A stretch of 64,000 nucleotides of DNA from Elusimicrobia bacterium GWA2_66_18 (GTDB lineage: Bacteria > Elusimicrobiota > Elusimicrobia > UBA1565 > UBA9628): NCBI GenBank assembly GCA_001799675.1, contig MGTX01000001.1, positions 1,602 through 65,601 on the forward strand, read 5' to 3'. This document shows, one piece after another, positions 2,133-43,921 of the stretch (its first letter is position 1; each line of letters opens with the position of its first letter). Position numbers and translations under genes: made by a program. The notes beneath the pieces are model-generated. The model saw only the letters and a program-made list of their open reading frames with translations, had not been told where the DNA came from and ran no database searches.

Positions 2133-2204
2133 GGGCCGTTAGCTCAGCGGTAGAGCGCCCGCCTTACACGCGGGATGCCGCAGGTTCGATCCCTGCACGG
2201 CCCA
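2133..2204 (+). tRNA. tRNA-Val (anticodon TAC)
   Basis: Acceptor GGGCCGT/ACGGCCC, anticodon stem CCCGC/GCGGG with loop CTTACAC, T-arm GCAGG-TTCGATC-CCTGC. CCA is not encoded. Confidence 0.85.
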
Positions 2205-2212
2205 CGCTTTTC

Positions 2213-8170: not shown

Positions 8171-8171
8171 G

Positions 8172-8762: not shown

Positions 8763-8787
8763 CAGATTCGGACAGGTCCGCTACACT
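8759..8787 (+). promoter_or_regulatory. Sigma70-like promoter candidate (TTGACA-N17-TACACT)
   Basis: TTGACA at 8759-8764, 17-nt spacer, TACACT at 8782-8787. Lies 40 nt upstream of the CHASE2 kinase start. The same motif recurs at four other operon starts. Confidence 0.4.
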
Positions 8788-8828
8788 GAGCCCCGTCTTA
8801 CCTCTCTTCCAACAGTCTCTCGTTATTA

Positions 8829-11525: not shown

Positions 11526-12412
11526 GGACCCAGGACGGCATCGAGACCTCGGGCGCGACCGATCCCGGATGCGTGCGAAAGAACAATGAGGACAATTTCG
11601 CCATCGAGCCGGAACTGGGCCTGCTGATTGTGGCCGACGGCATGGGCGGTCACAACTCCGGCGAGGTCGCCAGCGGCCTCGCGACCAAGGAGATCGCCCA
11701 CTACGCTCGCCAGATGCTCGGAGGTGAGAAGGTGCTGGTCCCCGAGGGCGGCACGCCGGGGCTGTCCGCCCGCGGCCGTCAGCTCGAGCTCTTCGTGAAG
11801 AGCGCCAACACTATAATCTACGAGAGGGGCCGGAACTATCCCAAGGATGCCGGGATGGGCACCACGGTGGTCGCGGTGCTGCTTGACGCCAAGTCCATGA
11901 CCGTTGCGCACGTGGGAGACAGCAGACTCTACCTGTGGCGCCAAAGGGAATTATCCCAACTTACTGAGGACCATTCTCTCGTGGTCGAGATGGTCAAGCG
12001 GGGGCAGATGACGGCCGATGACGCGTTGCGCTCGCCCCAGCAGAATATGCTGACCCGCGCCCTTGGGGCCGAGGGGGAGGTCCAGGTGGACGTAGCGGAA
12101 CACCCGCTCCTGCCGGGAGACTTGGTCCTGCTGGCGACCGACGGCCTCGCCAAGATGGTGTCCGACGCGGAGGTCGCGCGTGTCATTGAGTCTGAGGGCG
12201 ATGTCCGGAAGATCGTGGCCGCGCTCATCGCCAGGTCCCGCGCTGCAGGTGGGGTCGACAACGTTACGGTGGTCGCCGCGCGCGTACCGGCGCGCTGCGA
12301 GGGCTGGGTTGAGGGCCTAGTCTCGCGGTTATTCGGGCGAAGATGGGAAGATGGGGTCAGGCTTTCAAATCTTTCAAATTCCAAAGGGAATTTGAAAGAT
12401 TTGAAAGCCTGA
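11522..12412 (+). CDS. PP2C-family Ser/Thr protein phosphatase
   Basis: ..NEDNFAI..LLIVADGMGGHNSGEVAS.., ..GTTVVAVLL.., DGL motifs. Start overlaps the kinase stop (ATGA). The 3' end runs through the long hairpin, so the true stop may be earlier. Confidence 0.8.
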   Translation: MRTQDGIETSGATDPGCVRKNNEDNFAIEPELGLLIVADGMGGHNSGEVASGLATKEIAHYARQMLGGEKVLVPEGGTPGLSARGRQLELFVKSANTIIYERGRNYPKDAGMGTTVVAVLLDAKSMTVAHVGDSRLYLWRQRELSQLTEDHSLVVEMVKRGQMTADDALRSPQQNMLTRALGAEGEVQVDVAEHPLLPGDLVLLATDGLAKMVSDAEVARVIESEGDVRKIVAALIARSRAAGGVDNVTVVAARVPARCEGWVEGLVSRLFGRRWEDGVRLSNLSNSKGNLKDLKA

Positions 12413-12416
12413 CCCC
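12353..12416 (+). repeat. Perfect 30-bp-stem/4-nt-loop inverted repeat (hairpin) between the PP2C and FHA genes
   Basis: GGGGTCAGGCTTTCAAATCTTTCAAATTCC aaag GGAATTTGAAAGATTTGAAAGCCTGACCCC. The arms are exact reverse complements. Each arm contains a direct CTTTCAAAT x2. An AGGAGA RBS and the FHA ATG follow 24 nt downstream. Confidence 0.9.
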
Positions 12417-12439
12417 ATCCACATCCACAGGAGAACGCG

Positions 12440-13168
12440 ATGCCGAAGCTCTTGCTGAAGTTCAACGCTGCGGTCATTAAGGAGATCCCTTTCGACAAGG
12501 ACTCCCTCAGCGTCGGGCGCAAGTCCGACAACGACATCGTCATCGACAACCCCGCCATCTCGGGACATCACTGCCGCATCGTCCGCCAAGGCGGGACCTC
12601 CTTCGTCGAGGACCTTGAATCCACCAACGGGACCTTCGTCAACGAGAGGCGCATCAAGCAGTCGGGCCTTCATCACAACGACGTGATCGGGCTCGCGAAG
12701 CATGCCCTCGTCTTCATTGAGGACGCTCCTCCACCCGAGGACGCTCCCGCCCCGGCCGCCGGGCCAGCCGGCGACGCGACGATGGTGATCTCTCCGCAGA
12801 AGCAGGCGGAACTGGTGGCGGCCTCCACCGGCTTGGCCAAGCCGGTCGGCCTGACGAAGACGGGCTGGCTGCGCGTGCTCAAGGGCGCCGTCGGTCCTTC
12901 CGAGCACGAGCTCAAGGGTATGTCCACATATATCGGCAAGTCCGACCGGGTGCAGATCCAGATCAAGGGCTCGGGCCTGTTCGGTTCGGCCCCCGAGGTT
13001 GCCGCCTCGGTGCACCGCAAACCCGAGGGCTTCGTGTTGGTGGCCGTGACGGGCGGCTATCCTGTCGTCAACGGCAGCAAGGTCGCCGGCTCCGTCGTCC
13101 TTAATGAGGGCGACATCATCGACTGCGGCGCGACGACCATGCAGTTCGAGCTGCGCGACGCGGCCTGA
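12440..13168 (+). CDS. Tandem-FHA-domain protein
   Basis: First FHA: ..SVGRKSDNDIVIDNPAISGHHCRIV..STNGTFVN.. (G-R, S-x-H, N-G). Pro/Ala linker. Second FHA-like: ..GKSDRVQIQ..SVHRKPEG..VVNGSKV..EGDIIDCGATTMQFEL. Confidence 0.75.
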   Translation: MPKLLLKFNAAVIKEIPFDKDSLSVGRKSDNDIVIDNPAISGHHCRIVRQGGTSFVEDLESTNGTFVNERRIKQSGLHHNDVIGLAKHALVFIEDAPPPEDAPAPAAGPAGDATMVISPQKQAELVAASTGLAKPVGLTKTGWLRVLKGAVGPSEHELKGMSTYIGKSDRVQIQIKGSGLFGSAPEVAASVHRKPEGFVLVAVTGGYPVVNGSKVAGSVVLNEGDIIDCGATTMQFELRDAA

Positions 13169-17368: not shown

Positions 17369-18265
17369 ATGGCCATCATCCTCGATAAGGATTCGAAGAT
17401 CGTCGTCCAGGGCTTCACCGGTTCACAGGGCAGCTTCCACGCAAAGCAGTGCATGGATTATGGCTCACAGATCGTCGCCGGCGTGACCCCCGGCCGCGGC
17501 GGCCAGACCCACTTGGACCGGCCCGTGTTCAATACGGTCCACGATGCGGTGCGCAACACGGGCGCCTTCGTCTCGCTCATCTTCGTGCCGGCGCCGTTCG
17601 CCGCCGACTCGATCATGGAGGCCGTGGACGCCGGCTGCTCGACCATCATCAGCATCACCGAGGGCATCCCGGTCATCGATATGGCCAAGGTCAAGCGCTA
17701 TATCAATCAGCAAACCCTGTCTGGAAGAGAGATGACGCTGATCGGACCTAATTGCCCCGGCGTCATCACGCCCGGCCAGTGCAAGGCCGGCATCATGCCC
17801 GCATTCATCCACAAGCCCGGAACCATCGGCGTCATCTCGCGCTCCGGCACGCTGACCTATGAGGCCGTCGACCAACTCACTAAGCGAGGTCTGGGCCAGT
17901 CCACGGTCGTCGGCATCGGAGGCGACCCCATCGCAGGTTCGAACTTCTCCGACATCCTGGCCAAATTCGAGAAAGACGACGGCACCGACGCCATCGTCAT
18001 GATCGGCGAGATCGGAGGCTCGGCGGAAGAGGAAGCGGCCCGCTTCTTCAAGGAGAAGATGTCAAAGCCCGTCTTCGGCTTCATCGCCGGAAAGGCCGCC
18101 CCGGAGGGCCGCCGCATGGGCCATGCGGGCGCCATCATCGAGGGCGGCAGCGGCACCCACGCCTCCAAGATGAAGGCCATGCGCGAGGCCGGCATCATCA
18201 TGGTGGAGAACCTTTCCGAGATCGGCGAGACCGTCGCCAAATCCCGTCGCCCCTTGGCCGCCTAG
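17369..18265 (+). CDS. sucD: Succinyl-CoA synthetase alpha subunit
   Basis: ..[36 protein letters not shown].. with the catalytic His region ..[17 protein letters not shown]. Confidence 0.9.
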
Positions 18266-18903
18266 CGGCCCTGACTCTTCAGATATTTCTGGACTTCGGG
18301 GTTATTCTCGGCGCCCGGGGGCAGGTTCTTGAGCAGTTCCTGCATGTCCTGGCCGCCTTCCTGCCCCACGGGGGCGGTTTGCGGGCCGTTGCCGCCCTTG
18401 AAGCCGCTGAAGCCGCGGGTCGGTTGGAGCTTCGGAGCGGAGAAGTTCTTCTTGGTCTGTTTGGGCGTGGTCTTGGCCTTCACGGCGGGCGCGGGAGGCG
18501 GAGTCGGCGCGGGCGCCGCCGGGGTTTCAGCTTTGGGCGGTTCCGGGGCCTTGGCCTTCATGTCATCGGTCATCTTAATGAAGTCCAGGGAGGAGCCGGC
18601 GGGTGACTCTGCGCGGCCGGTCGCGCGGCGGGCGGACGAGGGGGCCGAGATGTTCGAGGGAACCGCGGTCTGAGAGGGCGTGATCTTGCGCTCGGAGCCT
18701 TCCCGGCGCTCAAAAAGGTCGTTGCGGCCGCTCGGGCCGCGGACGCTGCTTGCCTCGCTCCACTTGAGGTAGATGACGCCCATCAGTGGAAGGAGGAGGC
18801 AGACCGCGCCTCCGGCGAGCAGCCAGACGGTCCTCTTCTTGCGCGTCTGCTCGTGGTCATCCGGGGCAGGGGCGGCCATAGATGGGAGTGTATCAGGAGA
18901 CAC
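18262..18903 (-). CDS. Membrane-anchored Pro/Ala-rich low-complexity protein, hypothetical
   Basis: Single TM ([20 protein letters not shown]), then a PAPT/PEPP-rich tail. A true start may be an internal Met. Confidence 0.35.
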
Positions 18904-18930
18904 TGGGATTGTCCAGGGGTCCAGTGGGTC

Positions 18931-18958
18931 TTGACAAAAGCAACAATTCCGTTACACT
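18931..18958 (+). promoter_or_regulatory. Sigma70-like promoter candidate (TTGACA-N16-TACACT) upstream of the motor-like cluster
   Basis: TTGACA 18931-18936, 16-nt spacer, TACACT 18953-18958. About 170 nt upstream of the 19130 ORF. Confidence 0.35.
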
Positions 18959-19129
18959 CGTAGGGTAGCATCCTATCTGCGCTACAGGCCGGGTTTGGAT
19001 CAGGGGTTGGTGATCCAAGGGCACGGTTTGGGTCGTCGGTGCCGATAGGCGATAACGGCAAACTTGGCGCAAGCCAGGGGCGCAAAGCCATGACCCCCGG
19101 AGGGCCGGGGGCGTCAGGCTACCGAACAT

Positions 19130-20758
19130 ATGCCCGAAACTAAGGCGGGGGGCTTCGCCCCTGTGCGCGTTGCGCGCGCGTCGGCGCTCGTTGAGGCCGT
19201 CGCGCGCGCGTGTTTTTCTTTGGGGGCCCTTCTGGGGGCCCTCTGCTCACCAGTTTCGGCCCAGAGCGGCGGCCAGCCGGGCCAGTTCCTCAGCTATGGC
19301 GTCGGCGGCCGGGCGTTGGCCATGGGCGGCGCTTATTACGGTATCTCGGACGACGCTTCCGCCGCTTACTGGAACCCGGCCGGCCTGGCCCAGGTCCAGC
19401 GCAAGGAACTGACCACGATGCAGGCCACCCTCTTCCAGCAGACCAAGCTCACCTACTTAAGCTACGCCCACCCCACCAAGGGCGGATCCACCTTCGCCTT
19501 AAGCATGACCCAACTGGCCAACACCGGATTCGAGAAGGTGGACGTGATCTACAACCCGAACACGAACGAGCCCAAGACGGTCACCGCGAACGGATCCTTC
19601 AACGACGCTCAGCAGGCCATGTCCCTATCTTGGGCCAAGGGCGTGACCGAGACCATGCTCTTCGGCATGAGCGTCAAGCAGGTGACGCGCAAGCTGGCTG
19701 GTTCCTCGGACAACTTCAAGTCCCTGGACCTGGGCACGATGAAGACGATGGGGGCCTCCTATCGCCTCGGCCTCGGCATTCAGAACGTGTTCGCCATGCG
19801 CACCGGCGACACCGACGACAAGCTCCCCGTGACGATCAAGCTGGGCAATTCCCTGCGCCTCTTCAAGGAGCGTCTGACTCTCTCCGCCGATATCAATAAG
19901 GTCCTCAACGGCGATGTGGACATGCGCTTCGGCGGCGAGTACTGGATCGCGCGCTGGTTTGCCTTCCGTTTCGGATTGCTCGGCCTGCCCCGGATACAGG
20001 AGACCGACTTCGGCTTCGGGCTGAACTTCAAGAGCTTCAGCCTAGACATCGCGCAGGGCATACATGACCTCGGATCCAGCACGCGATTCTCCCTGTCCAT
20101 CCGCTTCGGCCAGTCGCGCACCGACCGCTCGACCGGCCAGGTCAAGAACTTCATCAAGCAGGGCATGGAGGCGTTCCAGGAAGGCAATTTCGCGCTTGCG
20201 GCGCAGAAGTTCAACCAGGCCCAGGATGCGGCTCCAGGAAATAAGCAGGTCGCGACCATGATCGCGCGCCTAAACAACGTGACGGGCTTTCTTCCCCAGG
20301 CGACCGGCGGCGAGGAGTCCCAGACCTTCGTGCGCAAAGGCGCGATCGCCTACGTGGACGGCCGCGACCTCAAGGTCGCGGTCAACTCCCTGCGTTACGC
20401 CTTCAATAAGAATCCTCGCGACGAGAAGCTCCTGGGCCTGCTGAATATGATCGAGAAGGAGGCCGGCGTGGCCGACGTCACGCGCCGTCTCGAGGGACCG
20501 GAGCAGTTCACCTGGATCGACCAGAAGGTCTTCGACGCTCGCCAGGCGGTCTACGACGGCCACTACGATTCCGCCGTGCGTCGCTCCCAGGACGTCCTGG
20601 ACCTTGAACCCAACAACGTGACCGCTCTTGAGATCATGGGCTCGGCCTTCTTCCTAATGGAGCAGAAGGACAAGGCCATGGCGGTCTGGCGGCGCGTGCT
20701 GGAGCTGGACCCCAGCAATCGCGCGGTGCGCGAGTTCATGCAGTCGGTCAGCCCGTGA
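19130..20758 (+). CDS. FadL/PorV-like outer-membrane beta-barrel domain fused to C-terminal TPR repeats
   Basis: Signal-like ..CFSLGALLGALCSPVSAQS. Hatch motif GGRALAMGGAYYGISDDASAAYWNPAGLA (compare FadL G-RA-SGE-AIADDAS--NPA-L). C-terminal barrel-like ..FSLSIRF. Then TPR-like helices to the end. Confidence 0.55.
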   Translation: MPETKAGGFAPVRVARASALVEAVARACFSLGALLGALCSPVSAQSGGQPGQFLSYGVGGRALAMGGAYYGISDDASAAYWNPAGLAQVQRKELTTMQATLFQQTKLTYLSYAHPTKGGSTFALSMTQLANTGFEKVDVIYNPNTNEPKTVTANGSFNDAQQAMSLSWAKGVTETMLFGMSVKQVTRKLAGSSDNFKSLDLGTMKTMGASYRLGLGIQNVFAMRTGDTDDKLPVTIKLGNSLRLFKERLTLSADINKVLNGDVDMRFGGEYWIARWFAFRFGLLGLPRIQETDFGFGLNFKSFSLDIAQGIHDLGSSTRFSLSIRFGQSRTDRSTGQVKNFIKQGMEAFQEGNFALAAQKFNQAQDAAPGNKQVATMIARLNNVTGFLPQATGGEESQTFVRKGAIAYVDGRDLKVAVNSLRYAFNKNPRDEKLLGLLNMIEKEAGVADVTRRLEGPEQFTWIDQKVFDARQAVYDGHYDSAVRRSQDVLDLEPNNVTALEIMGSAFFLMEQKDKAMAVWRRVLELDPSNRAVREFMQSVSP

Positions 20759-20787
20759 GCCCTCTCTGTCTAGGAGTCTTTCCTGTC

Positions 20788-20817
20788 TTGATTTCGTAAC
20801 AGTCTCCCCCTTACACT
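20788..20817 (+). promoter_or_regulatory. Promoter candidate (TTGATT-N18-TACACT)
   Basis: TTGATT 20788-20793, TACACT 20812-20817. Just upstream of the 20826 start. Confidence 0.3.
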
Positions 20818-20825
20818 TAATAGGA

Positions 20826-22835
20826 ATGCGTGCGTTCACCCTCGTGGCACTGTTCGCATGGCCGCCCTTCATCGGGGCGGCGGTCGCCGGCGTCGTCGCT
20901 CCCGACCTGGGACTGCTCCAAGAGCAGACGCGCATCAAGACGGAGTCGGAGTTGAAGATCCAGCGCGACGTTCTCGACCCCATCCTGGGCAAGGGGAGGA
21001 GCGCCTCCTTCGTGGACGTAGAGATGGAGGTGAAGGTCGAGAGCGAGGAGAAGACGAGTTCGGGCATGGGTCTGGCCGAGAAATACAAGGAGAAGGCCCC
21101 GGCGGTGCGCGGCGGCATGCAGACGACTTTCGTGCTCCCCGGCATCCCGAAGCCTAAGACCATCATCCAGGGTCCGCAGACACCGTTACGGCCGGAGCAG
21201 TCGCAGGCCCAGCAGGCCCAGCTGATCAAGGGTGTCCAGGAGGAGCGCTACGCGCTTAAGCCCGTCTTCAAACGCCTGCAGGTGACCGTGATGCACGATG
21301 ACGGCGTGCTCAAGGAGAAGGCGCAGGTGGAGTTGGTGCGCACGCGCATCGTAGAAGCGATGGGCCAGTACAGATTGACCCCGGACCAGGTCGCCTTCCG
21401 GCCGACCAAGTTCGACAAGCCCCCCCTGATGGACTGGAGGGAGGACTTTAAGAAGCCGTCCGTCTATCTGCCCCTTCTTTATGCTCTGCTGTTCCTTCTT
21501 TTCCTGTCCTTTCTATTCGGCCCGCTGGCTCGATTCTTCCGCCAGTATATTGCCGCCCTTAAAGAAGAGAAGCCTCCGTCCGAGGTCTCCGTCGACTCGG
21601 AGAACGAGGGATTAAACGAGGGGCAGGGAGAAGGCGGTGAGGACCATATATCGAAGGGCGCACTCGACATCATGCTGGGGCGAAAGCCGCCGGAACTGCC
21701 GCCGCCGCCCGAGGAGGATGAAGCCATGAAGAAATTCGAGCCGTTCACCTACATCAACGAGGAGAACTTCAAGCGCCTCGGCAACCTTTTCCTCGTGCGT
21801 CAAGACGAGCCGTGGCTGATCTGTGTGGTGCTGAGCTACCTCAAGCCCGAGCTCGCCCGTGCGACTCTGACCTCCTTGCCCATCGAGCTCCAGGCCAAGG
21901 TCGCCATCGAAGCGCTTAAGCTTCGCCAAGTCACCCGAGAGCAACTCATGGCCATCGACGCCGACATCAAGGAGAGCGTGGACTTCGTCGTGGGCGGCAT
22001 GGAGCGCCTCACCCGGATGCTTGACGAGGCCGACAGCCAGACGCGCTCCAATATTCTCGAATATTTCAAAAATGAAAAGCCCGAGGCGTATCAGCGCGTG
22101 CGCCTGTTTATTCTCATCTTCGAGGATATGGTCTCCTTCCCCGACCGAGACATGCAGACCATCGTGCGCGAGCTTAAGACCGAGACGATGGCCAAGGCCC
22201 TCCAGGGCGCTTCCCCCGATGTGGTCAACAAGTTCGTGAGCAATATGTCGGCGGGCGCCGCCTCCCTTCTCAAAGAATCCATCGAGTACGCTCAGGGCCT
22301 GACTGCGGCCCAAGTCGAGGAGGAGCGCACCAAGATCATGGAGGTCGTGAAGGCGCTCGAGAAGGAAGGTAAGGTCAACGTGCGCCAGAACCGTGCCGAG
22401 GCCTTCTCCGGTTTCCATGAGGAGGTCGCCAGCGAGCGAGGGGAACAATACGCACCCCGCACGCGCGCGGCCGAGCAGGCCGTGGCGCAACTGCTTGGCG
22501 GGCCGACCGCCGGGCCGGCCGCTGGGCCGGCCGCCGCGCCGGCCGCCGCGCCGGTCGCCGCGCCGGCGGTCGTCAACACGGCTCAGGCGCAGCAATATCT
22601 ACAGGCCGGCATTCAGTCCCATGACGCGGGACAGTTCCCGGAGGCCGTTCAATATCTCGAGTACGCTATTTCCCAGGACGCGGCTCTGTGGCAGGCCCGG
22701 CAGTATCTGGGGAACTGCTATGTGCAACTGGGGCGCACGACGGAAGCCATCGCCCAGTTCGAGCAGGTCCTCGCGTTCAATCCTGATCCGGGACTGCGGC
22801 AGTGGGTGGACGGCATGAAGACACAGACGGCTTGA
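20826..22835 (+). CDS. FliF-like (periplasmic ring-building-motif + TM) protein fused to a FliG-like middle/C-terminal torque domain and C-terminal TPRs
   Basis: N-terminal hydrophobic segment. Periplasmic region with a FliF/YscJ-like ..ELKIQRDVLDPILGKGRSASFVDVEMEV... TM helix LPLLYALLFLLFLSFLF. Cytoplasmic FliG signature ..LKTETMAKALQGASPDVVNKFVSNMSAGAASLLKESIEYAQGLTAAQVEEERTKIMEVVKALEKEGKV.. (compare FliG ..ALKG..FLSNMSQRAAEML.DLE.MGPVRLSDVEEAQKKIV..LAEEGKI). Ala/Pro linker, then TPR. Confidence 0.65.
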   Translation: MRAFTLVALFAWPPFIGAAVAGVVAPDLGLLQEQTRIKTESELKIQRDVLDPILGKGRSASFVDVEMEVKVESEEKTSSGMGLAEKYKEKAPAVRGGMQTTFVLPGIPKPKTIIQGPQTPLRPEQSQAQQAQLIKGVQEERYALKPVFKRLQVTVMHDDGVLKEKAQVELVRTRIVEAMGQYRLTPDQVAFRPTKFDKPPLMDWREDFKKPSVYLPLLYALLFLLFLSFLFGPLARFFRQYIAALKEEKPPSEVSVDSENEGLNEGQGEGGEDHISKGALDIMLGRKPPELPPPPEEDEAMKKFEPFTYINEENFKRLGNLFLVRQDEPWLICVVLSYLKPELARATLTSLPIELQAKVAIEALKLRQVTREQLMAIDADIKESVDFVVGGMERLTRMLDEADSQTRSNILEYFKNEKPEAYQRVRLFILIFEDMVSFPDRDMQTIVRELKTETMAKALQGASPDVVNKFVSNMSAGAASLLKESIEYAQGLTAAQVEEERTKIMEVVKALEKEGKVNVRQNRAEAFSGFHEEVASERGEQYAPRTRAAEQAVAQLLGGPTAGPAAGPAAAPAAAPVAAPAVVNTAQAQQYLQAGIQSHDAGQFPEAVQYLEYAISQDAALWQARQYLGNCYVQLGRTTEAIAQFEQVLAFNPDPGLRQWVDGMKTQTA

Positions 22836-22859
22836 CGAGACGACTCAGGAGAGACAACC

Positions 22860-25319
22860 ATGGCGCCTGAAGATCAGATTCCGCCGCCCCTGCCGCCTTC
22901 GGCCGGGCGGCCTCCGGTACCGCCGCCGCTGCCCGGCGCCGTCAAGCTGCCCGTGGCTCCGAAGCTGCCCGGGCGGCCGCCACTGCCCGGGATGGGACAG
23001 ATCGTTCCCCCGCTGCCCGGCGCTCGGGGCGCGCCGCCGCCGGCGCCTCCCTCCGGCTTTGGCGCGCAGGCGCGCGAGGCGGAGAAGGAGTCCGAGTCCA
23101 AGCTTGAGAAGGTCAAGGATGAGTACGAGAAGCGGATGTCCCAGCTGGAGCGGCGCCTTCAGGATGAACGCGAGAAGACGCTTGTCAACCAGATCAAGAG
23201 CCAGGAGGAGCAGGTCACGGCCGCCAAGGTCGAGGTCAGCCTAAAGGAACTTCAGGACCGGCTCCGTCGCGATCGTCGCGATCAGGACCAGGAGGAAGCG
23301 AAGGCCAAGCTCGAGAAGCGCGCCGAGGAGTTGGAGACGCGCCTGGCGCAGGAGCGAGAGACCTGGGTCGTCACCCTCAAGAACCAGCTTGCCGCCCGCG
23401 AGGGGCAGGATAAGGAGGTCGAAGTCCACTTTGCCATGCGCATCCAGGAGATGGAGCGCCGCTGGCTGGAAGAGAAGGCCAATTGGCAGCGGGTCGCCAT
23501 GGCCAAGGACGAGGAGATCCGCACCCTGCGTTCCCTGGCCGAGAAGCTCAAGGGCGCCGACACGGAGCTGTCGAAGATCTCCATGGAAAAGAAGATCCTC
23601 GATGAGAGGGTGACCGAGCTTTCGAAAGATCGAGCCGAGGCCTTGGCGCGCCTGCATAACGCCTCCGAGAGGGAGAATGAGTCCATCCAAATCAAGGCCG
23701 AACTTCTGCTTTCTCGCCAGCAGGCGGCGATGATCCAGGAGAGGCTCGAGCGCGATCTGGCGTCCCTGCGTTCCAGCGCTCGCGAACGCGAGGAGCGTCT
23801 GCTTGCCGACCAGGAGCGCCTCCAGCGCGATCTGGCCACGGTCAAACAGCGCTTCGATGCCGAGAAGGACTCCGAGTTGCGCCGCGTGAAGGTCGAGAAT
23901 GAGGCCGACCTGGCCCGGCACAAGGAGGCAGCGGAGCGCGCCAACGCCGAGCTTCAGCGCCTGCGCGCAGTCTGCGGGGCGCTCGAACAACAGGCCGCGT
24001 CATCCGTCGCCCAAATCAATGAACTTAAGAGTTCATCGGAGGAATTGAATAAGACCCAGGAATACTATAAGGCGGAGTTCGTGGTGCTCCAGCGCAAGTG
24101 GGTGGAGCGCGAGAAGGAGGTTCGTGCCGAGGTCGCGGAGCAGTCCCTTCAAAAGTGCGTCGAGAAGGACGCCGAGTTGCGGCGCGTGAAGATTGAGTAT
24201 GAGGCCGACCTGGCCCGGCACAAGGAGGCAGCGGAGCGCGCCGGCGTCGAGCTTCAGCGCCTGCGCGCAGTCTGCGGGGCGCTCGAACGGCAGGGCGCGT
24301 CCTCCCGCGCCCAACTCGATAAGCTCAAGCGTTCGTCGGCCGAATGGGAGAAGACCCAGGAGCGCTACAAGGCGGAGTTCGTGGTGCTCCAGCGCAAATG
24401 GGTGGAGCGCGAGAAGGAGATCCGCGCCGAGGCCGCGGAGAAGTCCCTGCAGATGCTCGAATCCGAGAAGACCCGGCTCAAGATCATGGCGCAGGCCGAG
24501 ATCAATGCGCGCGCGGCGAAGATCTCCGACCAACTGCGCAAGGAAACCGAATCCGCGAAGAGCCGACTCGAGGGAGATCTGCGCGTGGAGCTCGAAGGCG
24601 AGTTCCAGATCCGGCTCCAGGAACTGAAGGTCGAGAGAGAGGCGGTCCGGACGCAGCTCGAAAATGAAATCTCGCGCCTGCGGCGGGAGTCGGCCCAGAA
24701 GGAGGCGGCTTGGTCCGAAAGACTGCTCGCCAAGGAATCCGAGGTCATCGCCTCCCGGACCTGCGCAGACGAGGCTGCGAGGCGTCTGTCTCTTGAGGAG
24801 GAGTCTCGCCAGGCCGCAGACCGCAGGGCTTTCGAACTCGAAAAGTCGGTCCAGGACGCCCGGGAGCAGGGGACGGTCCTACAGAACTCCCTGCGGGCAT
24901 TGCGGCAGCGACTAGAGGAAGCGGAGGCGGGCACGGGACGTCTCGAGCGCGAGAAGACGGAGTTCGAACGTCTGTTCAGCGCGCAGTCGGCCCAGGCGCA
25001 GTGTGTTCAGGAGTCTCTGGAGCAGGCACGAACCCAGCTGGCGCGCGAGTCGCAAAGCGCCAAGATCGCGCAGAACGCGCTCGACCAAGCGGAGAAATCA
25101 CTTGGCTCCCTACGACAGGAACTGATCCTTAATACGCAGGCGCAGAAAACCGAGTTCGAACGGGCTCTTGCCCAGAAGGATCAAGAGATCTTGCAGCTGA
25201 TCGCGCAGGCGCGGGAGCTCCAACTCGGGCGCGAGCGGCTCGCGGCGGAGGCCGCGGGCAAGGCGCGAGAACAGGCGCAATCGAGCGCCTCGGACCTGCC
25301 GGAGCAGGGGGGCTCATGA
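22860..25319 (+). CDS. Giant coiled-coil protein with N-terminal polyproline (PPLPG x4) region
   Basis: 819 aa. The first ~60 aa are Pro-rich (PPPLPG, KLPG, PPLPG, PPLPG). The rest is E/R/K/L/Q-rich heptad coiled-coil with a 100-aa internal duplication. Confidence 0.6.
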   Translation: MAPEDQIPPPLPPSAGRPPVPPPLPGAVKLPVAPKLPGRPPLPGMGQIVPPLPGARGAPPPAPPSGFGAQAREAEKESESKLEKVKDEYEKRMSQLERRLQDEREKTLVNQIKSQEEQVTAAKVEVSLKELQDRLRRDRRDQDQEEAKAKLEKRAEELETRLAQERETWVVTLKNQLAAREGQDKEVEVHFAMRIQEMERRWLEEKANWQRVAMAKDEEIRTLRSLAEKLKGADTELSKISMEKKILDERVTELSKDRAEALARLHNASERENESIQIKAELLLSRQQAAMIQERLERDLASLRSSAREREERLLADQERLQRDLATVKQRFDAEKDSELRRVKVENEADLARHKEAAERANAELQRLRAVCGALEQQAASSVAQINELKSSSEELNKTQEYYKAEFVVLQRKWVEREKEVRAEVAEQSLQKCVEKDAELRRVKIEYEADLARHKEAAERAGVELQRLRAVCGALERQGASSRAQLDKLKRSSAEWEKTQERYKAEFVVLQRKWVEREKEIRAEAAEKSLQMLESEKTRLKIMAQAEINARAAKISDQLRKETESAKSRLEGDLRVELEGEFQIRLQELKVEREAVRTQLENEISRLRRESAQKEAAWSERLLAKESEVIASRTCADEAARRLSLEEESRQAADRRAFELEKSVQDAREQGTVLQNSLRALRQRLEEAEAGTGRLEREKTEFERLFSAQSAQAQCVQESLEQARTQLARESQSAKIAQNALDQAEKSLGSLRQELILNTQAQKTEFERALAQKDQEILQLIAQARELQLGRERLAAEAAGKAREQAQSSASDLPEQGGS
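23863..24462 (+). repeat. 300-bp tandem duplication (2 copies, ~85% identity) inside the coiled-coil gene
   Basis: The copies start with GAGAAGGAC(T/G)CCGAGTTGCG. Identical 40-50-bp blocks (GAGGCCGACCTGGCCCGGCACAAGGAGGCAGCGGAGCGCGCC; GAGCTTCAGCGCCTGCGCGCAGTCTGCGGGGCGCTCGAAC). They encode DSELRRVKVENEADLARHKEAAERA.. and DAELRRVKIEYEADLARHKEAAERA... Confidence 0.85.
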
Positions 25320-25540
25320 TTACGCTTCATAAGCTGAACGGCGCGGAGATCGTGGTCAACGCGGAGCTCATCGAGACCCTTGAGCCAGGGCCTCAGACCG
25401 TGGTGCATCTTGCGACCGGCAACAAGGTCCTCGTGGCGGAGAAAGCTGACGAGGTCGTGTCGAAAGTGGTGGAATACAGGAAAGCCGTCAACGCGTTGGG
25501 CAAGGCCGTCAACCCGATCGCGGGCTACGAGCGCGGTTAG
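25316..25540 (+). CDS. flbD: Flagellar FlbD-family protein
   Basis: 74 aa. MITLHKLNGAEIVVNAELIETLEPGPQTVVHLATGNKVLVAEKADEVVSKVVEYRK closely matches FlbD (MIKLTKLNG.EF.LN.D.IE.IE..PDTVI.L.NGKKY.V.ES.EEVV.KI.EYR). Overlaps the upstream stop (ATGA). Confidence 0.8.
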   Translation: MITLHKLNGAEIVVNAELIETLEPGPQTVVHLATGNKVLVAEKADEVVSKVVEYRKAVNALGKAVNPIAGYERG

Positions 25541-25560
25541 GCGCAGGAGAAGAACCCCTC

Positions 25561-26370
25561 ATGGACATCGCAACCATCGCCGGCATCTTCGTTTTTCTGG
25601 GGCTGACCGTCGCGTCGATCTACATAGGAGAAGGAGTGGCCGGCTTCAAGCCATTCCTGAACCTGGAGGCCCTGCTCATGGTCATGGGCGGGACCTTGTG
25701 CGCGACTCTGGTCAACTACCCGCTCTCCCAGGTCATCGGCGTGGGCAAGATCATCAAGAAGACCCTCCTGTCCCACGGCGAGGACAACTCGGACATCGTC
25801 GTGACCTTTGTCAACCTTGCGCAGAAGGCCAAGAAGGAGGGCTTTCTGTCCCTGCAGAGCGACATCAAGAACATCAAGAACGACTTCCTGCGCCGCGGCG
25901 TCCAGTTGGTCGTGGACGGCGCCGACCACGAATTCATCCGCAACATGCTCGAGACCGAGATTGGCTTCATCCGCGAGCGCCACAAGGGCGGCCAGGAGAT
26001 ACTCAACGCGATGGGCACCTATTCGCCCGCCTTCGGCATCATCGGCACCGTGCTGGGCATGATCTTGATGCTCTCCTCGATCGATGACGTCGCCGCGGTG
26101 CCGCGCCGCATGGCCCTGGCCCTGGCCGCCGCCTTCTACGGTCTAGGCTCGGGCTACCTCCTGTTCCTGCCGATGGGAGGCAAGCTGCGCCGCCGTTCGG
26201 AGGAGGAACTTCTGATCAAGGAGATCGTCATTCGCGGCGTCCTGCTCCTACAGAGCGGCGCCACGCCTTCGGTCGTGGAGGCGAACCTCAAGGCTTACCT
26301 GGCGCCTTCGGATCGGATCATCTTCAAGGGGGCGATTGCCCCGCCCCCCGCTGGAGGCGGGACCGCCTAA
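25561..26370 (+). CDS. motA: Flagellar stator protein MotA/PomA family
   Basis: Four-TM MotA/TolQ/ExbB topology. ..YSPAFGIIGTVLGMILMLSSIDD.. and ..ALAAAFYGLGSGYLLFLPMGGKL.. are typical MotA TM3/TM4 blocks. Confidence 0.85.
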   Translation: MDIATIAGIFVFLGLTVASIYIGEGVAGFKPFLNLEALLMVMGGTLCATLVNYPLSQVIGVGKIIKKTLLSHGEDNSDIVVTFVNLAQKAKKEGFLSLQSDIKNIKNDFLRRGVQLVVDGADHEFIRNMLETEIGFIRERHKGGQEILNAMGTYSPAFGIIGTVLGMILMLSSIDDVAAVPRRMALALAAAFYGLGSGYLLFLPMGGKLRRRSEEELLIKEIVIRGVLLLQSGATPSVVEANLKAYLAPSDRIIFKGAIAPPPAGGGTA

Positions 26371-26379
26371 GGTCCGCCT

Positions 26380-27123
26380 ATGCCCTTACGCGCTCCGCGG
26401 GGCTTCATCGACGAGTCGGACCCCAAGGTCTGTCAGATCGGCCATCCGGCTCCGCCCTGGCTCGTCAACTACGCCGACCTCATGACGGAGTTGGTCTGCT
26501 TCTTCGTCATCCTCTACGCCCTCTCCGCGGCCCTGAACAAGGACGTTCAAAAAGCCTCGAAGGACGTCAAGGAGATGATGGACAAGGGCGAGCTCAAGGG
26601 CGAGGTTAAGATCGACAAGGACGGCCTGAAGATCAGCATCGAGGAGCAGGGCATGGCCGGCTTTTTCGAGAGCGGCGCGGCGGAGCCGACCAAGGAGATG
26701 GATTCGAAGTTGATCCTGCTGGTTCCCTCCCTGCGCAAGCTGACCGAGGACCACGAACTCCTCGTCGAGGGGCACACGGACAACCAGGGCATCCACAACG
26801 CCTACTTCGACTCCAACTGGGAACTCTCCACCGCGCGCGCCACCAGCGTGGCGCGTCTGCTCATCGAGAAATACGGCATCCCCGGCGGCCACGTCGGCGC
26901 GGTGGGCTATAGCGACACGAGGCCGATCGTCGTCAACGATACGCCGGAAAATCGCACGAGAAACCGCCGCGTGGTCTTCTTCATCAAGAGCGCCTCCATC
27001 GGCAAGAAGGCAGCCGCGACCAAAGGGGGCGAGGGCAAGCCCGGTGCGGCCGCCGCGCCGCCCGCCCCGGCGGCCGGGGTCCCAGTCGAGCCGGCGCCTC
27101 AGGCGGCGCCGAAAAGCGGGTGA
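26380..27123 (+). CDS. motB: Flagellar stator protein MotB (OmpA-like peptidoglycan-binding C-domain)
   Basis: TM with the conserved Asp (WLVNYADLMTELVCFFVILYAL, compare MotB W.VTFADLMTLL..FF..LY). C-terminal OmpA-like ..LLVEGHTDNQG..YFDSNWELSTARATSVARLL..VGYSDTRPI..NRTRNRRVVFFI. Confidence 0.85.
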   Translation: MPLRAPRGFIDESDPKVCQIGHPAPPWLVNYADLMTELVCFFVILYALSAALNKDVQKASKDVKEMMDKGELKGEVKIDKDGLKISIEEQGMAGFFESGAAEPTKEMDSKLILLVPSLRKLTEDHELLVEGHTDNQGIHNAYFDSNWELSTARATSVARLLIEKYGIPGGHVGAVGYSDTRPIVVNDTPENRTRNRRVVFFIKSASIGKKAAATKGGEGKPGAAAAPPAPAAGVPVEPAPQAAPKSG

Positions 27124-27127
27124 TCAA

Positions 27128-27853
27128 ATGATAGAATACATCGTGAGCCGCCGCCTCATCTTTATCGTGATCCTGACAGCGTTTGCGGTCGCCTGCGGGC
27201 CTTCGAACAAGAACGTCGTGGTCGAGGACTTCGCCGAAGGCCGCGTGGTGGACTTGGCCATCACCGAGAAACTCACGGGCAACACGGAGTTCCTCCTTTT
27301 CTCGATGCCCAAGAAGACGCAGTTCCTGGACGGCTATGTCCAGGGCGTGATCACGGACTACAAGGACAACCCCATCCAGGGCGTGGTCGTGCGCGCGGTC
27401 GCCAGCGGCGAGAGTTCGGAGGAGGAGGGGGAGGCTCGTCCTTCCGGGTTTGCGACCAGTTCTTTCGACCCGGGCGTATCCGACACTAACGGCTTCTACC
27501 GCATCCGCTTCAGCCTGCCCATCTTGAGCAGGAAGGTGGATGTCCGCGGGCGCATGCTCTATAACCCGGGCTGGGAGCAGGAACGCGACAACCTGGGCAA
27601 GGCCTACGAGCCCCAGACCAAGCAGAGCCAGTTTCGCCTCTACTACGACCGCAAGAACGGTCGCATCATCTTCTCCGAGGGCGTGCGCAAGACCGTCGTG
27701 GCCGCCGTGACCGCCAAAGGCGTTCCGAAGTCCGTGCCCCTGCCCGGGGTCAAGCCCCCCGAAGAGGCCAAGCCCGCCGTGGACGCCGAGAAGGAGAAGA
27801 CCTCGGGCAAGGGAGACGACGACCTTTTCAAGGGGTTCGGCTTCGGCCAATGA
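27128..27853 (+). CDS. Lipoprotein, hypothetical (last gene of the mot-like cluster)
   Basis: Lipobox-like ..ILTAFAVACGPS. No family recognised. Starts 4 nt after the motB stop. Confidence 0.5.
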   Translation: MIEYIVSRRLIFIVILTAFAVACGPSNKNVVVEDFAEGRVVDLAITEKLTGNTEFLLFSMPKKTQFLDGYVQGVITDYKDNPIQGVVVRAVASGESSEEEGEARPSGFATSSFDPGVSDTNGFYRIRFSLPILSRKVDVRGRMLYNPGWEQERDNLGKAYEPQTKQSQFRLYYDRKNGRIIFSEGVRKTVVAAVTAKGVPKSVPLPGVKPPEEAKPAVDAEKEKTSGKGDDDLFKGFGFGQ

Positions 27854-29037
27854 CCTATCTCGACCACAACGCAACCACCCCGATCCGCCCCGAGGTCGTG
27901 GACGCGATGCTCCCCTGGCTGCGCGACGGCTACGGCAACCCGAGTTCCGTCTACGCCCTGGGCCAGAGCGCCCGCGCCGCCGTCGAGAACGCGCGCGAGC
28001 GAGTCGCCGCGCTTGTCGGCGCGCGGGACTCCTCCGAGATCGTCTTCACCTCCGGCGGCTCCGAGTCCGACGTGCTCGCCATCGCGGGCGGCGCCTGGCA
28101 GGCTCATGACGAGTCGAAGGGCAAGCGCCGCAAGGTCGTGACGAGCTGCATCGAGCACGACGCGGTCCGCCTGCTGTCCTCCCAGCTCCGGCGCCGCGGC
28201 TTCGAGGTGGCGCAGGCGGGCTGCGGCTCGGACGGCGTCGTCCTCGCCTCCGAGTTGGCGGGCAGAGTCGACGACGCCGCCGCCGTCGTCAGCCTCATGC
28301 ACGCCAACAACGAGACCGGCGTCCTCCAGCCCGTGACGCAGGCTGCGGCCGCCGCGCGCGCGCGCGGAGCGCTCAGCCACACCGACGCCGTCCAGTCCCT
28401 CGGTAAGCTCGCCGTCGACGTCAAGGCCCTGGGCGTGGACCTCCTCTCCCTCTCCGGACACAAGATCAACGCCCCCAAGGGAGTGGGCGCGCTCTTCGTC
28501 CGCCGCGGCGTGCGCCTCTCGCCGATTGTGACCGGTCACCAGGAGAAGAACCGCCGCGGCGGCACCGAGAACGTGGCCTCCATCGTGGCCCTCGGCCTGG
28601 CCTGCGAATTGGCCGCGCGGGAACTCTCCGAGGCCTCGGCCCGCGCGCTGGCCCTGCGCAAGCGCCTGGAAGCGGGGGTCCTTCTCATCCGAGGATCCCG
28701 GCTCAACGGGCACCCCGAGAATCGTCTTCCCACCACCGCGCACTTCAGCTTCGAGGGGATCGACGGCCACCACCTCGTGGTGGCCCTGGACCTGGAGGGC
28801 GTCTGCATCTCGAGCGGTCCCGCCTGTTCCTCGGGGGCTTCGACCCCCTCGCACGTCCTCGCCGCCATGGGCGTGGGCCCGAAACTGGCCGTCGGTTCCA
28901 TCCGCGTCTCGGTCGGCTGGGGCACGAGCGATGCCGACGTCGACCGCTTTCTCGCGACGCTGCCCAGCGCCGTCGAGCGCCTGAGAGAGATCGAGGGCGT
29001 TGCGCAGGGAAGTCACGCGGCGAGGAGAGCCGCGTGA
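27850..29037 (+). CDS. Cysteine desulfurase (NifS/IscS family, PLP-dependent)
   Basis: MTYLDHNATTPIRPEVVDAM..YGNPSSVYALG..ARERVAALVGA..EIVFTSGGSESD.. and ..SLSGHKINAPKGVGALFVR.. (PLP Lys region). Confidence 0.85.
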   Translation: MTYLDHNATTPIRPEVVDAMLPWLRDGYGNPSSVYALGQSARAAVENARERVAALVGARDSSEIVFTSGGSESDVLAIAGGAWQAHDESKGKRRKVVTSCIEHDAVRLLSSQLRRRGFEVAQAGCGSDGVVLASELAGRVDDAAAVVSLMHANNETGVLQPVTQAAAAARARGALSHTDAVQSLGKLAVDVKALGVDLLSLSGHKINAPKGVGALFVRRGVRLSPIVTGHQEKNRRGGTENVASIVALGLACELAARELSEASARALALRKRLEAGVLLIRGSRLNGHPENRLPTTAHFSFEGIDGHHLVVALDLEGVCISSGPACSSGASTPSHVLAAMGVGPKLAVGSIRVSVGWGTSDADVDRFLATLPSAVERLREIEGVAQGSHAARRAA

Positions 29038-30101
29038 CCCGGGTCCTGGCGGCGATGAGCGGCGGCGTGGACAGTTCCGTGGCCGCCGCCCTCCTCGTCG
29101 CGCGCGGCCATGAGGTCGTGGGAGTGACGATGAAGCTCCTGCCGCGCGCCGAGACGGGCTTCGGCTGTTGCGGTTCTCCCGCCGATGTGGAGGACGCCAA
29201 GCGCGTCTGCGACCGCCTCGGCATCTCCCATTACACGGCCGACATGTCCGAACTCTTCGAGTCCAAGGTCATCCGGCCCTTCGTGGAGGCATGGCTGTCC
29301 GCGCGCACGCCGAACCCCTGCGTCGAGTGCAACCGCTCGATCAAGTTCGGCCGCCTCCTGGGGCTCGCCGAGGCCTGGGGCTGCGACACGGTCGCCACCG
29401 GCCACTACGCGCGCGTGGAAGATGGACGCCTGCTCAAGGCCGCGGATCGAGACAAAGACCAGACCTATTTCCTGTACTCCCTGACCGCGCGGGAACTCCC
29501 GCGCGTCGACTTCCCCATCGGCGCCCTGTCCAAGTTCGAGGTCCGCGAGAAGGCGCGCGCTCTGGGACTGCGCGTGGCGGACAAGGCCGAGAGCCAGGAG
29601 ACCTGCTTCGTGCCCGCCCGCGACGTGCGCGGCTTCGTGGCCTCCCGCCCCGAGTCCGCAGGGGCGGCGGCTCTGCGCCCGGGAGAGATCCGCGATACCT
29701 CCGGCCGCGTGCGGGGCAGGCACTCCGGCCTGGCATCCTATACCGTCGGTCAGCGCAAGGGGCTGAGGCTCTCATCCTCCGAGCCTCTCTATGTCGTGCG
29801 CCTGGAGGCCGGGGAGAACGCACTGGTCGTCGGGGCGCAAGACGAGATATTCTCGGCCGGATTCGTCGCCGACGCCGTCACCTGGACCGGCGTTGCGCCC
29901 GAGGCAACGCGCCGAGCCGAGGTCCGCGTGCGTCACCGGCATCCGCCGGCTCCGGCGGAGCTGATTCCGCGCGCGGATGGAGCCGTCTCGGTCTTCTTCG
30001 ATTCTCCCCAGCGCGCTCCCGCGCCCGGGCAGGCGGCGGTGTTCTATGACGGCGACGAGGTGCTGGGCGGCGGGACCATCATCAACGGAGGTGCGTCATG
30101 A
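29034..30101 (+). CDS. mnmA: tRNA-specific 2-thiouridylase MnmA
   Basis: PP-loop ..VLAAMSGGVDSSVAA.., ..NPCVECNRSIKFGRLL.., ..TGHYARVEDGRLLKAADRDKDQTYFLY... GTG start overlaps the desulfurase stop. Confidence 0.85.
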   Translation: MTRVLAAMSGGVDSSVAAALLVARGHEVVGVTMKLLPRAETGFGCCGSPADVEDAKRVCDRLGISHYTADMSELFESKVIRPFVEAWLSARTPNPCVECNRSIKFGRLLGLAEAWGCDTVATGHYARVEDGRLLKAADRDKDQTYFLYSLTARELPRVDFPIGALSKFEVREKARALGLRVADKAESQETCFVPARDVRGFVASRPESAGAAALRPGEIRDTSGRVRGRHSGLASYTVGQRKGLRLSSSEPLYVVRLEAGENALVVGAQDEIFSAGFVADAVTWTGVAPEATRRAEVRVRHRHPPAPAELIPRADGAVSVFFDSPQRAPAPGQAAVFYDGDEVLGGGTIINGGAS

Positions 30102-30559
30102 GAAGGATCCGGGCACTGGCCATTTTAGCGGCGTCGATCTCCGGCTGCGCGGGCCTTTTTGCCAAGGACGAGGCCGCAGCCGATTTCGACAAGGAGACGA
30201 ACGCCGTCGAGGCTCGCATCAAGGAGGACCGGGTGCGCTCCGCCCTCGGCCGTTTTGAGGAGTCCATCGCCGACTTCTACAAGACCGAGAAGCGCATTCC
30301 CGAGAGGCTCGACCAACTGGTGCCTAAATATCTCGCCGAGGTTCCGTCCTTGGACCTTCCGGTCTGCGGGAGGGAGACGGAGAAGGTCCAGATCTACCCG
30401 GCGGATATCCTCCGCGGCGGCCAGGTGGACGGCTCCATGCTTAAGGGCACCGGCCGCTGGGGTTACGTCTACAATGATCACCAGGTCATCGTCTTCGTGG
30501 ATTGCCTGAAGGACTCCTCGCACGGCATCCCCTGGTATCAGGAGCGGGGCGTCTTCTAG
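30098..30559 (+). CDS. Lipoprotein, hypothetical
   Basis: Lipobox ..ILAASISGCAG. 153 aa. No family recognised. Confidence 0.45.
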   Translation: MRRIRALAILAASISGCAGLFAKDEAAADFDKETNAVEARIKEDRVRSALGRFEESIADFYKTEKRIPERLDQLVPKYLAEVPSLDLPVCGRETEKVQIYPADILRGGQVDGSMLKGTGRWGYVYNDHQVIVFVDCLKDSSHGIPWYQERGVF

Positions 30560-43891: not shown

Positions 43892-43921
43892 TTGACAAAT
43901 CAAGGGGCGGGGGGATACACT
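43892..43921 (+). promoter_or_regulatory. Promoter candidate (TTGACA-N18-TACACT)
   Basis: TTGACA 43892-43897, TACACT 43916-43921. ATG of the TPR-kinase at 43928. Confidence 0.4.

Follow-up and report, generated by a model that had tools for sequence, protein, structure and literature searches.

A natural fusion of FliF-like and FliG-like domains, encoded with flagellar-type stator genes in a conserved gene cluster of Elusimicrobiota

The stretch of DNA considered here (64,000 nucleotides, referred to as the window) comes from Elusimicrobia bacterium GWA2_66_18 (GenBank assembly GCA_001799675.1, contig MGTX01000001.1, positions 1,602 to 65,601 of the forward strand) and contains, at 20826..22835 (+), a gene that joins a FliF-like ring-building motif (RBM3), a transmembrane (TM) helix, the middle and C-terminal domains of FliG and a TPR domain in a single polypeptide. 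A sequence-only reading of the stretch had proposed a natural FliF-FliG chimera with an added Ala/Pro linker and a TPR tail, and this central claim held in every test run. The reading frame given there was borne out exactly, from ATG to stop, with 669 amino acids (aa), and the peptides quoted from it were located in the translation (ELKIQRDVLDPILGKGRSASFVDVEMEV at aa 43-70, KFVSNMSAGAASLLKESIEYAQGLTAAQVEEERTKIMEVVKALEKEGKV at aa 469-517). A database entry of identical sequence bears the name 'hypothetical protein DCZ01_10510 [Elusimicrobia bacterium]', and the homologs bear nearly without exception the names hypothetical, 'TPR repeat protein' or 'FliG C-terminal domain-containing protein'. Since independent assemblies contain at least 435 homologs that match it in length and architecture and have the reading frame intact, the fusion is a real gene and not an assembly or frameshift artefact.

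An N-terminal hydrophobic segment followed by one TM helix had also been postulated, in agreement with the two segments found by the Kyte-Doolittle method (aa 6-24 and 213-231). The first of these peaks belongs to a putative signal peptide or signal anchor (aa 1-24; 20826..20897, +) with a low predicted local distance difference test (pLDDT) score; this counterpart of the first TM helix of FliF (TM1) may be a cleavable signal peptide. The second peak lies within a TM helix of aa ~211-238 (21456..21539, +), seen by AlphaFold2 as well as by hydropathy, which is equivalent to FliF TM2 and carries an invariant FLFGPL motif. In the hydropathy scan this segment is followed by R/R/K, which places the C-terminus of the fusion in the cytoplasm. 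TM helix and linker make up the region upstream of aa 305, and the Ala/Pro linker (aa 521-590; 31% Ala, 10% Pro) leads from the FliG-like part to the cytoplasmic TPR domain (aa 584-657; 22575..22796, +), which is recognised by the Pfam models TPR_19, TPR_2 and TPR_CcmH_CycH over aa 584-655 (TPR_19 E 6e-9; TPR_2 E 1e-7, aa 600-655).

The relationship to FliG is evident from several databases. The best PDB match of the fusion in a phmmer search is FliG-MC of Thermotoga maritima (1lkv, E 2.4e-29, aa 305-523), with other FliG structures next, and its FliG_C part also matches 1qc7 (E 2.5e-15). Pfam FliG_M is found at aa 323-384 (E 1.3e-7) and FliG_C, at aa 415-518, reaches E 1.3e-23 (83.7 bits against a cutoff of 23.3). 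On the DNA, the middle (ARM_M) domain, delimited by FliG_M and the 1lkv alignment, corresponds to 21738..21980 (+) and the C-terminal domain to 22068..22385 (+), the latter including the torque helix at aa 473-493, NMSAGAASLLKESIEYAQGLT. Lack of a FliG_C match and membership of the MgtE_N-domain proteins had been named beforehand as refuting alternatives; FliG_C is significant, and the MgtE_N candidate was rejected, its score being sub-threshold (19.4 bits, cutoff 25.9) and located inside FliG_C, with no CBS or MgtE domain present. Like FliG from T. maritima (1lkv) and Escherichia coli (b1939), the fusion possesses middle and C-terminal ARM domains, a Gly-Gly linker, the NMS motif and a torque helix, and the MFxF-like motif reads 'LIFED'. 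Different from FliG, it lacks FliG_N, shows a modified FliM-binding EHPQR motif and a reduced set of torque charges, and has acquired a C-terminal TPR extension. As to FliG_N, the NCBIfam fliG equivalog TIGR00207 matches with model positions 112-329 of 338 only (102.9 bits, under the cutoff of 226.7), and a weak Pfam FliG_N match (E 0.0011, aa 334-412) overlaps FliG_M and reflects ARM-repeat self-similarity.

Functional residues were mapped by aligning fliF, fliG, motA and motB of E. coli K-12 with 50 fusion orthologs and 43 cognate MotA/MotB. The EHPQR residues of E. coli (E125, H126, P127, Q128, R160) correspond to D327, E328, P329, W330 and E362 in the fusion, where W and E are found in 50/50 orthologs and position 327 is D or E across the family. 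Among the torque charges K264, R281, D288, D289 and R297, replaced by Q460, G477 (50/50), E484 (50/50), S485 and T493, respectively, only one of five is kept, namely D288 in the form of E484. This Glu is invariant in all 50 orthologs as well as in 32 divergent members down to 18% identity, among which it is one of only two invariant residues. What the sequence-only reading called a 'near-canonical' C-domain is so in its fold and NMS motif but not in its charges, four of which have become Q, G, S and T. With no FliG_N, a changed EHPQR motif and one of five torque charges, the fusion is not a canonical FliG.

The periplasmic RBM3/collar-like ring-building motif occupies aa 28-193 (20907..21404, +). 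Pfam found no FliF model on the full-length protein; with aa 1-245 alone, YscJ_FliF_C (PF08345, RBM3/S-ring) aligned over profile positions 1-145 of 147 at E 0.073, and RBM1/RBM2 (PF01514, YscJ_FliF) did not match even at E up to 10. An AlphaFold2 model of the N-terminal region, built on an 18-sequence family alignment, has a core pLDDT of 88-95 and comprises a helix (28-54), a long strand (59-75), an unpredicted segment (79-138), a further long strand (140-157), a helix (165-178), a strand (189-193) and the TM helix (211-248). Compared with the PDB by Foldseek, this model retrieved 18 FliF chains as its top 18 matches (E 7.8e-6 to 3.7e-3), comprising RBM3/collar S-ring structures of Salmonella and Vibrio and a FliF-YlxF model, the next match following at E 0.057. 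The segment at the tip of the long hairpin (aa 79-138, GMGLAEKYKEK...VLPGIPKPKTI...QAQQAQ; 21060..21239, +) has a pLDDT <50 and nevertheless many invariant columns, with L104, P105 and P108 nearly invariant among the 32 divergent members.

Searched exhaustively with a profile, 1.84 billion representative sequences yielded only 123 relatives of the N-terminal domain, about 35 of them full-length (600-705 aa), and no canonical FliF of ~550 aa. In the 32 divergent full-length members (18-58% identity) FliG_M is found in 30, FliG_C in 29 and TPR in 28; on their own, 11/32 pass YscJ_FliF_C at E <=0.001 (best 6.6e-12), and the relatives P0170 and P0215 carry precomputed PF08345 matches. By hhalign, the shallow 18-sequence profile aligns with E. 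coli FliF at a probability of 4%, the 32-member profile at 54% over the beta2-alpha2-beta3 part, and a hidden Markov model (HMM) of the 32 domains is co-linear with E. coli FliF 236-432 (19.9 bits, one-sequence test); the 32-member alignment is supportive but not decisive on its own. Run against all PDB sequences, an HMM of the 18 N-terminal sequences retrieved no FliF, giving TM-helix noise at E ~1. The FliF assignment rests on the predicted fold and on the Pfam matches in relatives. The predicted fold, the transitive sequence relationship and the topology point the same way: the N-terminal module is a homolog of FliF RBM3/collar plus TM2. Of the FliF/YscJ ring-building likeness put forward initially, RBM3/collar and TM2 have thus been retained, whereas RBM1/RBM2 are absent. 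RBM3 is the ring-forming part of FliF, whose ring has ~33-34 subunits, and RBM1 and RBM2 surround and cradle the export gate. In common with FliF, the fusion has an alpha-beta-beta-alpha-beta ring-building motif with two long strands, then a TM helix and a cytoplasmic C-terminus; it differs in the missing RBM1/RBM2 (periplasmic part ~190 aa against ~400 in FliF), in a hairpin-tip loop that is shorter and strongly conserved, and in the replacement of the C-terminal FliG_N-binding peptide by a covalent linker to FliG_M.

The fusion is gene 2 of 7 in a cluster encoding, in this order, a PorV-like barrel with TPR, the fusion, a Pro-rich coiled-coil protein, FlbD, MotA, MotB and a lipoprotein, with intergenic gaps of 67, 24, -4, 20, 9 and 4 bp. 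Upstream lies a promoter-like site (TTGACA-16-TACACT; 18931..18958, +), a sigma-70-like consensus match only and the sole one on the + strand within 18200-30300 (12 kb); a terminator scan at the cluster performed no better than on shuffled sequence. The first gene (19130..20758, +; 542 aa) encodes a PorV/PorQ-family outer-membrane beta-barrel with C-terminal TPR, assigned by NCBIfam PorV_fam (NF033709, E 1.4e-29, 103.8 bits against a cutoff of 90), scores for the specific PorV and PorQ equivalogs being under their cutoffs; Pfam describes its N-terminal part as UPF0164/FadL-like and detects TPR at aa 470-537. In nearly all loci this gene directly precedes the fusion. The third gene (22860..25319, +) encodes a cytoplasmic coiled-coil protein of 819 aa with no Pfam match and no TM segment, whose first 75 aa contain 35% Pro and whose blocks aa ~120-240 and ~450-540 are kept across 48 loci; the same Pro-rich and coiled-coil design is found in the 26%-identical locus L055. 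A tandem duplication of ~100 aa (copies ~78% identical) is present at aa ~345-545 of this protein (23892-24494) and absent from nearly all of the 48 orthologs.

FlbD/SwrD (25316..25540, +; 74 aa) is recognised by Pfam PF06289 (E 2.1e-22, 78.9 bits against a cutoff of 24.7), and shares an ATGA with the coiled-coil gene, where the latter stops and flbD starts; flbD is located upstream of motA in about 45 loci. MotA (25561..26370, +; 269 aa) belongs to the flagellar type, has the long cytoplasmic insertion and matches MotA of Clostridium sporogenes (PDB 8ucs/6ysf, E 4.6e-53) and PomA (E 1.4e-43). MotB (26380..27123, +; 247 aa) has a plug and an OmpA-like peptidoglycan-binding domain (Pfam MotB_plug E 9.3e-12, OmpA E 1.2e-14; NCBIfam MotD/MotB E 2.4e-39). 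All NCBIfam equivalog scores of the stator genes are under their cutoffs. The last gene (27128..27853, +) encodes a conserved lipoprotein of 241 aa, a beta-sandwich known from Elusimicrobia only, which ends in an invariant D-x-F-K-G-F-G-F tail (~27824-27850). The same motif, in the form F-[KERS]-G-F-[GD]-[FL], occurs in the hairpin loop of stand-alone RBM3-like proteins (P0158, P0159, P0167, P0171, P0188), which are secreted, 160-240 aa long and devoid of TM helix and FliG; the shared FKGFGF-type motif may serve as a short peptide that docks onto the ring or its TPR partner.

Like MotAB/PomAB systems with FlbD (SwrD), the cluster combines flagellar-type MotA (269 aa) with MotB possessing plug, D32 equivalent and OmpA-like domain, and flbD stands directly upstream of the stator genes, as in operons of Bacillus and spirochetes. 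FlbD/SwrD has been linked to torque and is predicted to contact MotA (PMC13232269). MotB D33 (E. coli D32) and MotA P156 and P204 (E. coli P173 and P222) are present in 43/43 orthologs, and the proton-path residues of MotA and MotB are, according to this alignment, intact. At the rotor-facing positions, MotA K91 (E. coli R90) is basic in 43/43 and K92 is basic as well; in contrast to MotAB/PomAB, the acidic residue at the E98 position is lost, Q99 being Q in 40/43 and E in 3/43, and a conserved Asp (D101) follows two positions later. One charge pair is thereby kept on both partners (stator-basic K91/K92 against rotor-acidic E484), and a complementary one is lost on both, that of MotA E98 and rotor R281, R297 and K264. 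The pattern is as expected if MotA and FliG_C were partners that simplified their interface together, as we infer from the aligned sequences.

Conservation of the cluster was followed at several levels. When 185,579 species genomes were scanned for a pattern of the N-terminal domain, 51 loci were obtained, all from metagenome-assembled genomes, two megabase-scale assemblies among them, and nearly all labelled Elusimicrobia/Elusimicrobiota. According to tblastn, about 40 of the 54 Elusimicrobiota loci fetched keep all seven genes in unchanged order, with fusion identities as low as ~40%, and in most of the remaining ones the cluster is cut by contig ends. MotA is the most conserved cluster gene (75-91% in all loci keeping the order), and in many genomes the cluster has a fixed chromosomal position among housekeeping genes. 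For the fusion, the ratio of nonsynonymous to synonymous substitution rates (dN/dS; Nei-Gojobori, against seven orthologs) amounts to 0.08-0.19 over the whole gene, stays below ~0.4 for every domain, both linkers included, and is 0.08-0.41 for the hairpin-tip loop, all values being approximate because dS is near saturation. The seven-gene cluster is conserved under purifying selection across Elusimicrobiota.

More divergent loci show the fusion in other surroundings. Locus L053 contains two FliF-FliG fusion paralogs (1172-2983 and 7938-9914): a 603-aa form that lacks TPR (YscJ_FliF_C E 7.4e-6, FliG_M, FliG_C) is located directly upstream of its own motA-motB, and a few kb further downstream the TPR form takes its place in a PorV-TPR trio. 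The 26%-identical L055 (L055:1-5327, L055:15798-16145) has the trio of PorV-TPR, fusion and coiled-coil genes next to two PorV genes, two genes for proteins with type IX secretion system (T9SS)-type sorting domains at the C-terminus (Por_Secre_tail/CHU_C) and one for a Roadblock/LC7 (MglB-like) protein, and in L056 (L056:1-8182) the trio follows the gene of a giant protein of >3,500 aa. The neighbourhoods of these distant relatives hint at a surface function.

Taking these data together, we lean towards the view that the fusion is the rotor subunit of a machine derived from the flagellar motor, which works without export apparatus, rod, hook and filament; together with the MotAB operon, it probably constitutes a proton-driven motor functioning without a flagellum. 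No other flagellar genes were present among the 41 open reading frames (ORFs) scanned in the window, a set that takes in most of the large ORFs and whose products have housekeeping and signalling roles, nor were any seen in the flanks (8-10 kb) inspected around the related loci. A more specific version, to be taken as a tentative suggestion, assumes a distinct envelope-spanning rotary machine, in which a self-sufficient ring of the fusion would be driven by MotAB and would pass torque via the collar loop to the barrel/TPR protein and the lipoprotein, powering surface motility or surface-protein handling. The locus would then represent a natural 'half a motor', either a streamlined derivative or a living analogue of the flagellar motor core.

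Mechanistically, the RBM3-like domains would oligomerise into an S-ring-like ring in the inner membrane, and the covalently attached FliG would form a FliG_MC ring in 1:1 stoichiometry beneath it. The FliG_N-FliF contact would not be needed in such an arrangement, and the loss of FliG_N would be explained by the fusion itself. As EHPQR is gone, FliM/FliN would not be recruited, which suggests that there is no switching. MotA5B2, anchored to peptidoglycan through MotB and possibly assisted by FlbD, could push the FliG_C torque helix via K91/K92 against E484, and we propose that the ring would turn as a result, probably in one direction only. Coupling of the ring to the outer membrane might be provided by the loop aa 79-138, the lipoprotein and the TPR that the PorV-like barrel holds in the periplasm; a role as scaffold or regulator of the ring might fall to the cytoplasmic TPR and the Pro-rich coiled-coil protein. 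As to the output, our guess is a process at the surface or outer membrane, for instance gliding-type movement or surface-protein handling.

Several points weigh against the assumption of a rotor. MotA E98 is lost, as are four of the five charges canonical for FliG, so that the canonical electrostatic interface cannot be assumed. Co-variation of charges among exceptional loci is anecdotal: L053, with R/E in MotA at the positions of E. coli R90/E98 and K at the K264 position of its TPR-form rotor, fits, and L051 and L052 do not. The structural basis consists of monomer models only, and oligomerisation, rotation and MotA contact are inferred. Finally, motAB is not within the DNA retrieved for the very divergent relatives L055 and L056, and the fusion may therefore not always depend on a dedicated stator.

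The loss of most torque-interface charges is what could be expected if the fusion were a non-rotary transducer or anchor that recruits MotAB and hands conformational work driven by the proton motive force to the PorV-like/TPR protein, in the way TonB/TolA act with ExbBD/TolQR. It is a single-pass protein whose periplasmic domain could reach an outer-membrane partner, the operon includes an outer-membrane barrel as well as a lipoprotein, and related 5:2 motors drive non-flagellar envelope processes (PMC12505986). TonB and TolA, however, engage their motors by a TM helix and not by a cytoplasmic FliG_C, the periplasmic domain has specifically the ring-building RBM3 fold of FliF, MotA, with its long cytoplasmic insertion, belongs to the flagellar and not to the ExbB/TolQ type, and the FliG_C torque helix and E484 are the most strictly conserved features; we consider a transducer unlikely, albeit deserving attention. 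The even less probable case that the fusion is an accessory or paralogous rotor part of an ordinary flagellum encoded elsewhere, similar to the FliG1/FliG2 paralogs of spirochetes, could draw on FlbD-MotA-MotB being a typical fragment of a flagellar operon, on the few Elusimicrobiota genomes that encode complete flagella (10.1101/2022.07.08.499144), and on the scope of our negative result, which covers window ORFs and locus flanks rather than the whole genome. Such a part would have to act without FliG_N for FliF, without EHPQR for FliM and without RBM1/RBM2, the only MotAB of the cluster is dedicated to the fusion, the ORFs and flanks inspected contain no further flagellar gene, and most free-living Elusimicrobiota carry motAB, flbD and fliG yet lack flagellar structural proteins (10.1101/2022.07.08.499144).

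Partial flagellar gene sets are common in non-motile bacteria and have sometimes been read as remnants (PMC12199754), and the fusion might itself be made of flagellar leftovers that joined by accident and are decaying or functionless. Against this stand the dN/dS of 0.08-0.19 with constraint on every domain, the intact frame in the homologs (at least 435), the seven-gene synteny kept where the fusions are only 40-60% identical, the invariant catalytic stator residues, and the lineage-specific partners (PorV-TPR, coiled-coil protein, lipoprotein), which have been added and conserved; selection and synteny data exclude a decaying relic, and we give this explanation hardly any weight. A Zorya-like anti-phage defence system, built on a MotAB-like motor, came into consideration with the match of MotB to the ZorB models of PADLOC (best E 1e-18) and the long coiled-coil protein encoded next to the motor. 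PADLOC found no ZorA, ZorC, ZorD or ZorE and had no match for the other six cluster proteins, MotA is not ZorA-like and has no tail, MotB fits flagellar MotD/MotB far better (E 2.4e-39), and the fixed position among housekeeping genes is unlike that of a defence island. The Zorya explanation was rejected on the PADLOC and context data, its chance being practically negligible.

Comparison with known systems places the rotor reading in a broader frame. The periplasmic TPR proteins PflA and PflB are scaffolds of the high-torque flagellar motors of Campylobacter and Helicobacter; by analogy, the cluster may likewise be seen as encoding a periplasmic TPR alongside stator and rotor, with the difference that its TPR is fused to a PorV/PorQ-family outer-membrane barrel. 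A resemblance also exists to GldLM/PorLM (T9SS, gliding) and to Agl-Glt of Myxococcus, all of them envelope-spanning systems in which a 5:2 ion-driven motor powers a process of the outer membrane or surface; the PorV/PorQ-family barrel of the cluster, and the T9SS-type cargo and PorV genes flanking the distant relative L055, add to the likeness with T9SS and gliding. In contrast to GldLM and AglRQS, the motor of the cluster is a true flagellar-type MotAB that presumably acts on a FliG domain. No GldK/N, SprA or Glt components were seen, no T9SS components besides the PorV-family barrel occur among the window ORFs scanned, and no report of a T9SS in Elusimicrobia was found in the literature. 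Engineered FliF-FliG fusions of Salmonella and Vibrio, in which MS-ring and rotor proteins are likewise covalently joined 1:1, assemble rings (PMC10941966, PMC11481574), and PDB entry 8z4d matches our fusion at both ends, with FliG by sequence and with the S-ring by fold. Those fusions are laboratory constructs of full-length proteins inside a complete flagellum (PMC10941966, PMC11481574), whereas the natural one is trimmed (lacking RBM1/2 and FliG_N) and no other flagellar genes were seen to accompany it.

The remainder of the window contains further features. A CHASE2-Ser/Thr kinase, a PP2C phosphatase and an FHA-domain protein are encoded at 8829-13168, ~6-10 kb upstream of the cluster, and keep their position in locus L002 and partly in L003; genes for 2-oxoacid:ferredoxin oxidoreductase and succinyl-CoA synthetase lie in between. 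Just upstream of the cluster, at 18262-18903 (-), is an ORF of 213 aa with no Pfam or NCBIfam match, and at the corresponding position L002 and L003 have a gene alike in size and orientation, again with no Pfam match. Two neighbouring genes at 43892-48074 encode Ser/Thr protein kinases with TPR (550 and 826 aa), followed at 48127-48484 by a transfer-messenger RNA gene with the tag peptide ANTQLAWATA; tRNA-Asp is located at 705-782 (-) and tRNA-Val at 2133-2205 (+). At 2213-4408 an anion transporter of the SulP family is encoded in one protein of 731 aa with STAS and cyclic-nucleotide-binding domains. A DDE transposase (DDE_Tnp_1_4, E 3e-46), probably an insertion sequence, is found at 4831-6141 in a stretch whose G+C content drops to 0.62, the 2-kb blocks before and after it having 0.70 and 0.66, respectively.

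The flagellar rotor-stator core as such is known; the natural trimmed FliF-FliG fusion and its seven-gene cluster appear to be undescribed, as no account of a natural fusion of these proteins, of the trimmed architecture or of the cluster was found in the literature, nor anything specific on non-flagellar FliG-MotAB systems. A preprint of 2022 devotes one paragraph to the homologues of motAB, flbD and fliG in free-living Elusimicrobiota without flagellar structural genes and calls their role 'unclear' and 'enigmatic'; a flagellar gene table per genome is not part of its supplements (10.1101/2022.07.08.499144). In a survey of 2025, rotor proteins without filaments were reported in 11% of non-motile species and alternative functions were suggested (PMC12199754), and a MotAB phylogeny of the same year is silent on a rotor-fusion system (PMC12505986).

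For these enigmatic rotor and stator genes, the locus provides a concrete and testable object, a fusion with its own stator, FlbD and outer-membrane partners that is conserved phylum-wide. If the fusion rotates, the rotor-stator core would be detachable from type III export and axial structures and could be re-used, which bears on the evolution of the flagellar motor. A minimal rotor consisting of one polypeptide and MotAB would, if true, be attractive for structural and single-molecule work.

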